A stretch of 64,000 bases of DNA from Sphyrna mokarran (Eukaryota): NCBI GenBank assembly GCA_024679065.1, contig JAGIQG010000001.1, positions 98,952,001 through 99,016,000 of the forward strand, written 5' to 3'. The first letter of the stretch is position 1. Each line of letters opens with the position of its first letter. The translations under genes and the position numbers were made by a program. Shown here in pieces: positions 5,321-24,322 of the stretch. A model generated the notes under the pieces. The model ran no database searches. It saw only the letters and a program-made list of their open reading frames with translations, and had not been told where the DNA came from.

Positions 5321-6038
5321 GTGTCAGGGAGCATACATTATAATCTTATGTGATTTTTAAAATCTTTAACTTAAATATTGGCAATTATTGAACGAAAAAA
5401 GTTAGCTGAAAATGATTTTGGATTACATTTTAAGAGATTGCAGACAGATTCTGTAATCTCAGGCTGTTTTAAAGTCGCAGCTATGTGTCATTCCCACTGA
5501 ACATATAACACTGAAAATGTCAATAATTGGACAACCAAAGAAGTGACAGATACTGAATAGTCTTACAATGGGAAGTTTGTTGTCTTCACTGTCTTGGTGG
5601 AAATGTTGTGAGAAGTATCCTGCCAGCTACATAACCTGTCCAATTCTTTATTTCATTGATTTGAATCCACTTTTCCAGATATACAGCCCAGACAGCGAAG
5701 ATCAAAAATTACTCCAATAAGTTATTAAATGAAACTGCTTATACCACGTTTTTTAAATAACACATATATCATCATTAGCTAACAAGTTAAAACTATTTCC
5801 ATGGCTGTATGTAATTCCGCTTTCTAGTAACTATATACCTCCTGGGTATACTTGAGTATCAATTATCAAGTTAACTTTTCTACTTTTCTGTGCAAGGGAA
5901 TAAATCTGAATTTCTCAGCTTTGCATAGTGATACAAACGATAGCAGTTAATGCTCTTAACTGAGCACTCAGATTATTTACAAAGGCAATTACACTGCAAG
6001 GATCATGCATCGGATGAGTAAATAAGTGAGGAGCTTAC

Positions 6039-6183
6039 ATTTCAGTGATGCTTTCAGGAAGCTTGCTGGATATCTCTGTGAGGCCCTTACCACGGCAATC
6101 CACAATACTGTTGCTACATGTACAGACCGCTGGACATGACTTTGAATGGACACTGCAAGACTGTGTTGTTAAACTCTGGTGCC
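6039..6183 (-). CDS. slit2: Slit2 coding exon (equivalent to exon 9), 145 bp, D1-D2 linker and LRRNT of D2: (G)[47 protein letters not shown](I)
   Basis: TTTTTCCCTTCACTCCTGTAG|GGCACCAG...ACTGAAAT|GTAAGC; phase 1-2. LRRNT pattern CP..C.C....VDC, and the Slit2-type GHQS start. Confidence 0.96.
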
Positions 6184-7754
6184 CTACAGGAGTGAAGGGA
6201 AAAACAATGACACCACTGAAAACTAGTCATTATGAATTTCTTCCTTCTTAAAAGTGCATTACACTGGCCAGAATTCTCTGACCGCGTCCAAAGCTGGGTT
6301 TCTCCAGTCACGCTGCAGTGAACAGAAATTTGGCTGAGTAGCGGCAGGGCATGTCAGACCAAAGAATTCCAGCCACTTCATTAAATAATTCATCTGACAA
6401 ATTTGAAATGAGTTATATAATTTCAGTGCCTCAATAATTGCAAACAACTAAACCATAAGTGACTGCAAAACATTCAAAGAAGGTTGAATGATAGACTACT
6501 CTTTAAAATCAAATTAGTAGTATGAAGCAATGCTACTTTATCATCACTGTCCAGTCAGAATTCAAGTAAAAGAAAATATGTGCGTGCTTTAGATGTGACC
6601 TCGACAAACAAATTCATTGATAAAGTTGGCCACATTTATAATATTTATCTTGTATTTATATTACTGATGGGCAAAAGGATAAAACATAATCAGAATTCCA
6701 CAGCACCCAGCTAAACATCTGATATTGCAGTGCATGCAACAATATCAGTAAGATAGATTTACCTTTGCCAGTATATTACTTCATATTGATTAATAAACAC
6801 AGTCAGGTTAAATGGATGCATCAATTACTTACCAAGTAATATTTCTACATGAACGCCAACCATAACAGGATTTGTTCCTCAAAACTTACAAATCCGGTGA
6901 GCATGAAGCCCAATATCAAGTCCTGAGAATTCCATCCTTAATAGCCAGTGAATGCAGTAGGAACTATGCATGGAACTAATGGGTAACTGAAAATGTACGC
7001 TAACTTCAAAAGAAACCTCTGATGTATAACACTGAGAGTCACCTGAATAGAATTGTTCAACCAAGAGTTCATCCTCAGTACTTTTACATCAGTTTCTTCC
7101 AAGCCATGTGCCTATAGCAGTGTATTTGGTTGGGTGGAGCACAACTGGGGCTACACCTGGAAAATCTAGACCAGGTGGAAGATAATGCAGATATCTGGTG
7201 CCAATGCAGGGGCTAAATATTTAGTTCAATTTAACTTAACTCTAATTCAAAAATGTCATTTGTTGCTGTGCAATACAACATTTTTAAATGGTAACAAAAA
7301 TGCAAAATGTAAACGTATTGGAATTATGAAACAAATGCACACTCTCTTACGCATTGCAAATATTAATATCAGTTCTCAGTGAAGCAGAAGGAAAAATCCA
7401 ACTCTCAGGTTCAGACGATTAATTTTACTTTCACAGTATGGGTCGTGGATCAGATACCTTCATTGGATAATATGCATTAATTCATTAAACTGAACCCGTA
7501 TTATTTACTCTGCAATGTTCTAACACGCCAAAAATCCTAGATTGTATGACACTAGTGACAAATGAGGAAAATAAACCCAATCATTTAGCACCCAGATTTT
7601 ATGTGCATGCTTAAAAACATTCAAGGAGATTGTTCAGACAGAAATGCTTTGTACATCAGGACAGAATTTTGGAGATCAGAATGCAATTCCCATCAGATAA
7701 CAATCTGACCAACATCTAACAAAGTGTAGAATATGAAAAGAGAAATAAACTTGC

Positions 7755-7766
7755 CTTTATTCTCAT
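7755..7766 (-). CDS. slit2: Putative 12-nt alternative microexon of slit2 (ATGAGAATAAAG, inserting DENK) with a GC-type 5' splice site
   Basis: Minus strand: ACTAAC branch point (7822-7827), TTTTTTTCCTCCTGCTTTCCAG acceptor, 12-nt exon, AAG|GCAAGT donor. Phase 1-1 fits between exon 8 and exon 9, at the position of the known mammalian DEEE insertion. Confidence 0.85.
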
Positions 7767-8717
7767 CTGGAAAGCAGGAGGAAAAAAATGATAAAAAAAT
7801 ACATCACAATTAATACCTTATGTTAGTCCTTCCAACAAAATCACTAATGATTGGCAAAGGTTGCACACCCCATTACAATTAGCAGCATTTTCAGAAGCCT
7901 AGAGCGTGACAGCGGAATTTAGAAGTTATATAAAAAAAGTATTTTTGCCTTAATAAAAAATAAAAGGAAAGATGTGTGGAACTTAGGGTAGTTGCTCATA
8001 TGAGTACTCTGCAAACAAGGTCGGAGCAACATTTCATGCCTAATTGCTTAATGACAAAGTCTACACATAACACACTTTCAAAACAGTTATACCATCATCA
8101 GGAATGTTACGTGTTTTTTTTATCTTTAATCAGATAAAAAAGAGATCTAACAATAATTGAGACTATCTTTCTCTTACATTCCCAACCTCTGGAGCTATAA
8201 TACATCCAAAGATCTAAGCAATAAAAAGCAATAAGACTTCACACTGAGAGACATTGCTATAATCGTTACCCAAATGTATAGCATTACTATTTCAAGAAAA
8301 CATGTATAAAGAAAAACAATTATAAACAGGTGAAAACAATTGCTACTAAAATATTCTGCAACATCTCAGCTCACTGCAGGATATTATGTTCTAACAATTG
8401 ATGTATTAGTGAACCTACTGGAACTATATATCATCTTATATTCAATTAATTTGCCATTTTCTAAATATAAGAGCAAACACATCCATTTTAAATAAATATA
8501 TTTAATGATTTCAAAACCTAAATTGTTGTAAAAATCCAAATAATTTAGCACATTATTGAGCAGTTAAATAATTAAAACCATTATCCTTTGAATATTTTTG
8601 CAGGTAGTGTGCACATCATGACTACATAAAAATGCAACAGCAGACTAGTTTTTCACAATTTACAGACACACGTTTTGACCAATCTTCTTTTTCAATACTT
8701 CCTTTTTCTCCACTTAC

Positions 8718-8881
8718 CAGAGCAAATAAACTCCTTCTTTTGTACTTCTGCAACATTATGGCCCCTCAGGTGCCCAGGCCCTGTGCATTGCGTGTAAAGC
8801 CCAACTCGAGGGCGCTGCCGCAACCAATCGGCAAGCCATGCTAAATGGCAGTCGCAGTACAGGTTGTTTGAATGGAGCCGG
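8718..8881 (-). CDS. slit2: Slit2 coding exon (equivalent to exon 8), 164 bp, LRRCT of D1: [54 protein letters not shown]
   Basis: TTCTTATTCCAG|CCGGCTC...TGCTCTG|GTAAGT; phase 2-1. LRRCT cysteine pattern CDC..C..C; contained in ORF 8692..8898. Confidence 0.98.
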
Positions 8882-10303
8882 CTGGAATAAGAAAGCAAGG
8901 AACAAAGTTATTTCATTTAGGTGAACAAAGGAAAGTGAGCAACACAATTTCAGAGATCCACGGTTTATGTAATAAGGAGAGCAAATGAGGAATCAATCCT
9001 TTAATCTCATCTGTAAATTTAAGGCTCCCTGACAGGACCATTTCCAATCCTTCCACCCTTCTTTCCTCAACCAACATTTGTGTGACAGCAGCCTTTTAGC
9101 TAGAGATTAATTAATTAATAAAAGTTGGCTCAGTTGTCACAAAATCAATTCAAAGCATCCCCCCTTGACTGGATTACGAGCTCAGCAAACACCTAAGAGC
9201 CAGAAACCCAATTATGGAATTCAGAAGCTGAAGTCCAACCAAATGACAAAAAAGGCAAATTGCACCACAGTGGCAGCATACCGTATTGTCAGCAAGAAAA
9301 ATAATGTTAATAGAAGCTTTGGCTCCCAATTAAAAATACCAATAAGTCTTGCCATTATTAGTCTCTATAAAAACTGCCTTCAAAATCCTTTTAGCAGATG
9401 ACATTCATTTTCCGCTGAACAAGGCTGAAAGTAACTCAATATAAAATACGCCTTTCATATCAATTTTTTTCTGGTTTCCTCATTTCTTGTTTAATCACAG
9501 AAAAAGGATTAACAGATTTTGGCCCCTTGGGAGCTGCGCTCAATGCAATCTCTGAAATTAAAAGACGCAAATGGTAGTAAGCAGGGGAATTAAGTGAGCT
9601 GTTTTCCCTGACAGGACCTTCACAAGAACATGGCTCCCATCCAACAGGCAAAAAGCACCTTGCCATTAATAAAATATCAGACAAATGTATGCTCTAAATT
9701 AGGCAAATTGCTTTGGACTGGCTTTCATGTTCCTCAAAGTAAAATAAAGGATGACAAAAGCTATAAATCAAGCTGCTGTCTGGAATCCTGCATTGACTGT
9801 GTAATGTCATTTCATCAGAACCTTTTAGTCAATGCATTCAATCCTAACAAAATATACCCTAATGGATATTGAAACGCAGAATGCCATCCTGCATGCTAAT
9901 TTTCCATTTAAGAAATTACTGGATAGACAGCTACTTTTAATTAAGTCCTGTACTTTGGAATACATTTTGCAATATATTTTCGTATACATGCCTCTTAAAG
10001 TAGCACTGCAATGTAATTTGTTTATAAAAATAAAATGAGAAAGAAACCTGGTAAACAAATACCTGCCAGAAGCTCGAATTCACCACCAGCCAATGTCCTT
10101 ACATCTATTATCATAGATATTTTTAAGAAGCAGTTACACAGAAATGTAAAAGAGGAAAGACTATGCATTTTGATGCAGGTTTGGAATCTTGTCACTTTTA
10201 AACCATTTTTCTTTATGTAGTTATCACCAATTTCGATAATGTTTCTACTTGAATATGACAAAAATTATATTTTGTAGCAATATCATGTTTCCTTTTTACT
10301 CAC

Positions 10304-24250: not shown

Positions 24251-24322
24251 AAATTCTTGATGTCAACGGCTCCTCGGAAAGCCTTCCTCGGAATAGCATG
24301 AATATGATTTTCGCTCAGATCA
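24251..24322 (-). CDS. slit2: Slit2 coding exon (equivalent to exon 5), 72 bp, one LRR of domain D1: [23 protein letters not shown](L)
   Basis: Minus strand reads TTATTACAG|TGATCTGAGC...AAGAATTT|GTGAGT; phase 2-2. The peptide is nearly identical to vertebrate SLIT2 [24 protein letters not shown], and GAVDIKNL is Slit2-type. Confidence 0.97.

Follow-up and report, generated by a model that had tools for sequence, protein, structure and literature searches.

Based on the analysis of a 64,000-nt stretch of the Sphyrna mokarran genome (the window), we propose that a 12-nt sequence on its minus strand is probably a partly included exon of slit2, likely to be included more in neurons under SRRM3/4, which adds four residues to the linker between domains D1 and D2 and has an orthologue in jawed vertebrates. 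Judged by its sequence, the candidate would be a real cassette exon of a known class and an ordinary member of that class. The exon is already catalogued in gene models of catshark, bony fish, frogs and birds, and likely in human, and hence is not new.

Five constitutive slit2 exons were located on the minus strand of the window, starting at 24322, 12938, 10375, 8881 and 6183. The one at 8881, presumably exon 8 in human SLIT2 numbering, is in a protein search 100% identical across 54 aa to shark SLIT2 (P0001), so that the gene is the shark slit2, as the sequence-only reading had stated; the one at 6183 is 94-96% identical to shark SLIT2. The host intron of the candidate is the 2.5-kb intron between these two exons, which lies between the D1 C-cap and the D2 N-cap. 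Note also that in our alignment sharks, rays and chimaera have two more residues than bony vertebrates in the linker preceding the D2 N-cap, which the exon at 6183 encodes.

All three junctions at the hinge, those of the upstream exon, the candidate and the downstream exon, are phase 1, so that the inclusion of the 12 nt would cause no frameshift, inserting D-E-N-K between the C-terminal Cys-Ser of D1 and Gly-His-Gln with no stop. The candidate (Table 1) fits the length range of the frame-preserving microexons regulated by SRRM3/4 (3-27 nt). Ahead of it, 24 of the 27 nt of the tract are pyrimidines, and a TGC at 7776-7774 (minus strand), with CTC directly before it, gives the UGC between branch point and AG that belongs to this class. 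The hexamer ACTAAC, present in 10 copies on the minus strand of the 64 kb, is the putative branch point, and its predicted branch A, at 57 nt, fits the distant branch point and pyrimidine tract of SRRM3/4-regulated microexons; in the available part of PMC12871342, this distance has a median of 45-47 nt in neural microexons, against 34 nt in others. The coordinates and the phase 1 junctions bear out what had been claimed from the sequence, namely a 12-nt exon that retains the frame at the D1-D2 hinge, with ACTAAC, a U-rich tract, TGC and an acceptor upstream. The claim of an RBFOX-type element did not hold up as supporting evidence and was rejected, because GCATG, which does exist downstream, has 72 copies on the minus strand of the window and is at chance level (p about 0.2 per 200 nt). 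The 151-nt region around the candidate has a single match in the genome, and the local RNA structure near it is not more stable than that of shuffles (z +1.12). One sequencing run, presumed to be RNA, gave over 5900-9000 a single 32-nt contig piece within an intron, with neither exon coverage nor junctions, a result that has no bearing on expression. About 5 nt past the predicted branch point there is a donor-like AAG/GT context (7820-7811, minus strand), which could be a decoy site.

Table 1. Features of the slit2 hinge region, with further slit2 cassettes and paralogous introns (window positions unless a contig is named; a slash marks the exon-intron border)
Feature	Position	Strand	Details
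Upstream constitutive slit2 exon	8881-8718	minus	164 nt, D1 C-terminal cap, GT donor
Predicted branch point ACTAAC	7827-7822	minus	putative branch A 57 nt upstream of the 12-nt exon
3' splice-site region	7816-7767	minus	AG-free stretch, long pyrimidine tract, CTC then TGC, CAG acceptor
12-nt cassette microexon candidate	7766-7755	minus	phase 1 to phase 1, CAG acceptor, donor AAG/GCAAGT
GC-type 5' splice site	7757-7749	minus	consensus at all scored positions but +2
GCATG pentamer, possible RBFOX site	7610-7606	minus	145 nt downstream, preceding base A, not T
Downstream constitutive slit2 exon	6183-6039	minus	145 nt, linker and D2 N-terminal cap
24-nt slit2 cassette	G000:C1:98919002-98918979	minus	D2-D3 linker, GT donor, matches published exon 15, from scan
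18-nt slit2 cassette	G000:C1:98912135-98912118	minus	D2-D3 linker, six more residues, one extra Cys, TGC directly at acceptor
33-nt slit2 cassette	G000:C1:98877566 downward	minus	D4-EGF1, AAG acceptor, one extra Cys, matches catshark model P0128
27-nt slit2 cassette	G000:C1 near 98855635	minus	EGF region, TGC just before AAG acceptor, matches catshark model P0133
slit paralogue with phase-1 hinge intron	G000:C738:6099045-6099206	plus	intron about 5.5 kb
slit paralogue with phase-1 hinge intron	G000:C446:23292888-23293049	minus	intron about 21.5 kb

The donor of the candidate is of the GC type, and GC donors are weaker than GT donors. In a maintained GC-AG intron, a consensus match is expected at the other donor positions. 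With generic donor weights, the flanking positions (-3 to -1 and +3 to +6) score 8.1 bits, against 6.6 and 2.9 for two neighbouring GT donors, so that by the measure of a strong 5' splice site the candidate tops the three donors, yet carries C at +2. Paired with the AG at 6185-6184, the donor would give an intron of the GC-AG (U2-type) form, consensus otherwise at these predicted sites, and the earlier description of AG/GCAAGT as a well-matched GC-AG donor agrees with every scored position except +2. GT donors were considered as alternatives and rejected: those at +16, +46 and +53 break the frame, and the in-frame one at +57 has a poor context.

A microexon scan was made with a YAG acceptor, no AG in the preceding 20 nt, a length of 3-27 nt divisible by three, a GT or GC donor scoring at least 6 bits, a pyrimidine fraction of at least 0.8 and no stop. 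The candidate is the sole pass among the 24 sites of the intron and the 541 sense-strand sites of the window, and none of the 539 antisense sites of the window and none of 2000 first-order Markov copies of the host intron passed. Because the thresholds were chosen after the candidate was known and the donor weights are generic, the scan is taken as supportive and not as giving a formal p-value. As a positive control, a relaxed scan of 20 kb in the D2-D3 region picked the known 24-nt slit2 exon 15 as the sole match among 166 sites; of the three small downstream slit2 exons that are in range it recovered this one and missed the 18-nt and 27-nt ones. Single motifs are weak when taken alone, as GCATG illustrates and as does TGC, which lies within 20 nt of the acceptor at one of the five constitutive acceptors of the window (the exon at 8881).

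By scan and peptide search, the downstream slit2 introns were found to hold four more small cassettes, of 24, 18, 33 and 27 nt (Table 1). Several gene models from sharks and teleosts also have the 18-nt cassette, and the 27-nt cassette agrees in length and location with the Slit2 microexon published as nSR100-dependent. Two slit paralogues, which we take to be slit1 and slit3, retain a phase-1 intron at the D1-D2 hinge, and in these matching introns no candidate was found at relaxed thresholds; this negative result is weak, since the same scan recovered just one of the three small downstream slit2 exons.

The age of the exon is indicated by SLIT2 proteins of other vertebrates, all of them gene models. 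Searches and cluster look-ups gave 251 proteins, of which 50 partial or divergent models were dropped and 201 fit the hinge pattern; in these, 169 have no insert at the hinge, 27 have a four-residue insert led by D and 5 have other small differences. The inserts are DDDK in catshark (n=1), DEEE in birds and Xenopus (n=6), DEDE in shad, darter, saury and seabream (n=9), DDDE in eel (n=2), DWDE in cichlid and clownfish (n=3), DADE in pipefish (n=1), DFSE in zebrafish and other cyprinids (n=4) and DFNS in razorback sucker (n=1). Thus the inserts all agree in length and in their first D, and vary at positions 2-3 and in net charge, from -1 to -4; the last residue is K in both sharks and E in most bony vertebrates. 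The change between the sharks' terminal K and E would correspond to one base at -4 and would not touch the final three exon bases, which are part of the donor. The candidate DENK shares the features of this hinge cassette, that is, an intron between the D1 C-cap and the D2 N-cap, four residues and a first D. Among 46 aligned proteins, the hinge is the only site of a recurrent four-residue indel in D1-D2.

In the catshark (Scyliorhinus canicula), it is SLIT2 isoform X9 (XP_038647435.1) that has DDDK at the hinge, and two sister isoforms skip it. Among the elasmobranch models that cover the hinge, with 15 of the 103 cluster members listed, 13 of 14 skip the insert and one carries it; no insert was found in the seven chimaera SLIT2 models. 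Since catshark and the teleost, frog and bird gene models have the insert at the same site, the exon dates back at least to the split between sharks and bony fish, and the sequence-only reading was right about its origin. Its expectation that annotation had probably missed the exon is not supported, given the catshark RefSeq model, with the listed elasmobranch models otherwise skipping it, and its contrast of charge between DENK and DEEE loses its interest given the spread of charges among the inserts, so that the idea of a special charge switch was rejected. The DEEE insert that it ascribed to mammals, which we likewise take to be the mammalian form, stands in part: a 12-nt human exon is on record, while the insert occurs in none of the 13 mammalian SLIT2 proteins retrieved.

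This human record is the SLIT2 exon HsaEX0060157 of VastDB, which, in the available part of PMC7935315, is among 314 exons raised by SRRM4 in HEK293. According to the same data, SRRM4 takes its PSI from 46.0 to 96.9 in HEK293, and mature neurons have a PSI of 54.2, up from 26.1 in progenitors; induced xenografts show a rise from 23.1 to 68.2 and SH-SY5Y one from 31.8 to 46.1, and in normal breast, kidney and lung the PSI is 18-31 (mean 24.8). Because HsaEX0060157 has 12 nt, because the 24-nt exon 15 follows it at a distance of 34 kb, and follows the candidate at 41 kb in the shark genome, and because the hinge has the sole recurrent four-residue indel, it would be the hinge exon, and is likely the orthologue of the shark candidate, by length and gene order and not by its sequence. 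As for the motif, the accessible part of a preprint (bioRxiv 10.1101/2024.09.17.613571) gives UGC in 74-79% of SRRM4 targets, where it is not strictly required, and reports that the way in which orthologous minigenes respond to SRRM4 is conserved between shark and mammal. The 12-nt exon is absent from the zebrafish neural-exon tables of PMC12626424 and, in the files searched from PMC4387716, from the mouse nSR100/Srrm4-mutant table, the sole slit2 entry in both being the 27-nt exon. The searched supplements of PMC12626420 and PMC12868881 have no slit2 rows, and PMC7821500 has one unspecific Slit2 row. The proposed SRRM3/4 dependence is supported, through the SRRM4 response of the likely human orthologue, and a strict neural specificity is not, with human non-neural inclusion of about 25% and the absence from the zebrafish neural and mouse Srrm4-mutant lists. 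For Sphyrna mokarran, we infer both the splicing of the exon and its tissue bias.

In the protein, the insert would lie between two folded domains. The catshark D1-D2, including the insert, was modelled with AlphaFold2 (460 residues, 46-row alignment); the model has a mean pLDDT of 84.9 and a pTM of 0.55, and its sole segment under pLDDT 50, residues 234-246, begins at the insert, so that the insert is in a predicted flexible linker, outside both folded domains. In this predicted model the orientation of D1 and D2 is undefined, and among solved structures no chain spans the D1 C-cap or the hinge, the best match being D2's own cap (E 7e-9). D2 is the Robo-binding domain, and Slit signalling requires heparan sulphate, as given in the available part of PMC2693880. 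Since the length of the insert is kept and its charge and sequence are not, its role is likely that of a spacer and not of a binding motif. By analogy with the linker microexon of DAAM1, the effect would most likely be a modest one, on how far D1 reaches or how it is oriented with respect to D2.

It is proposed that skipping would be the default, arising from the weak GC donor, the short length and the distant branch point, that SRRM3/4 would promote inclusion through the UGC, that inclusion would make the predicted flexible D1-D2 linker longer by four residues, and that this spacer would modestly tune the D1-D2 geometry. For such an exon speak its uniqueness in the scan, the DDDK of the catshark, the inserts in 27 of 201 proteins, the SRRM4 response in human and the low-pLDDT hinge. 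Weighing against it are the models without the exon (13 of the 14 listed for elasmobranchs, 7 of 7 for chimaera and 13 of 13 for mammals), its absence from the zebrafish and mouse lists and the human non-neural PSI of 18-31. These last two points, together with the mean of 25 in non-neural tissue, a PSI of 46 in HEK293 controls and a TGC at one constitutive acceptor too, would equally be expected if the exon is real and included at a low to moderate level in all slit2-expressing shark tissues with no meaningful neural or SRRM3/4 control. We consider this unlikely, because in human SRRM4 raises the PSI in three systems and neuronal maturation brings a rise as well, and because the minigene responses to SRRM4 are reported to be conserved from shark to mammal (bioRxiv 10.1101/2024.09.17.613571, accessible part).

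It is also conceivable that this lineage of sharks is losing the exon by decay, a former GT donor having become GC, and that its use is by now rare or nil, a reading that would accord with the lower strength of GC donors and with a peptide that differs from that of the catshark at two of four residues. All other donor positions are however consensus, as one would expect if a GC donor is maintained, the branch point, the tract, the UGC and the acceptor are all preserved, and insert positions 2-3 vary among teleosts too, so that decay appears distinctly improbable. A mere chance arrangement of signals in an AT-rich intron draws on the post hoc thresholds of the scan and on the poverty of the Markov null in U-tracts, and is extremely improbable in view of the antisense strand, where 0 of 539 sites pass, and of the peptide, which shares length, phase, first and last residue with the catshark insert at the same junction. 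The partly included exon, responsive to SRRM3/4, is thus the reading we prefer. It could be extended to a more speculative scheme, which we hold to be doubtful: the GC donor would be an ancient conserved brake, the proportion of Slit2 with the short hinge to that with the long one would be governed by the level of SRRM3/4, and four residues of any sequence would shift D1 with respect to D2, which binds Robo and heparan sulphate, and alter the repulsive potency, the hinge exon forming, with the D2-D3, D4-EGF1 and EGF5 cassettes, a slit2-specific set of splicing-encoded domain spacers of at least jawed-vertebrate age.

The value of the candidate as a discovery is small, the exon being in public gene models and its likely human orthologue being a listed SRRM4 target, and conservation from shark to mammal is the rule for the class of SRRM3/4 microexons. 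What it offers is a four-residue cassette adjoining the domain by which a major guidance cue binds Robo, with fixed length and free sequence across jawed vertebrates; if the insert alters the potency of Slit2, it would be a ligand-side counterpart to the Robo1/2 microexon switch. Our literature search, with subscription papers mostly outside its scope, found work on the 27-nt and 24-nt slit2 exons, the latter including exon 15 variants (PMC6406468 and PMC7720527, as far as available), and no functional study of the 12-nt exon, which is not discussed in the available parts of PMC12308364 and PMC12358039.

Finally, we compare the candidate with known systems. The closest are isoform X9 of the catshark and the teleost, frog and bird models, which are like it in gene, junction, length and first D; the catshark insert also ends in K, and DDDK differs from DENK at two of four residues. 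With HsaEX0060157 the candidate shares the gene and the 12 nt, and the human response to SRRM4 matches the UGC architecture in the shark, the regulation being measured in human and deduced in the shark, and the human peptide presumably being DEEE. The 27-nt Slit2 microexon of EGF5, dependent on nSR100/SRRM4 in the available part of PMC4387716, has the gene and the class of regulator in common with the candidate, but is a separate exon of 9 residues about 104 kb downstream. The neuronal microexon of DAAM1, as described in the available part of PMC12056172, is conserved from shark to human with constant length and lengthens an interdomain linker, as here; it is tightly neural, with a biochemical and behavioural effect that was tested, whereas for the slit2 hinge exon such an effect would be a prediction.
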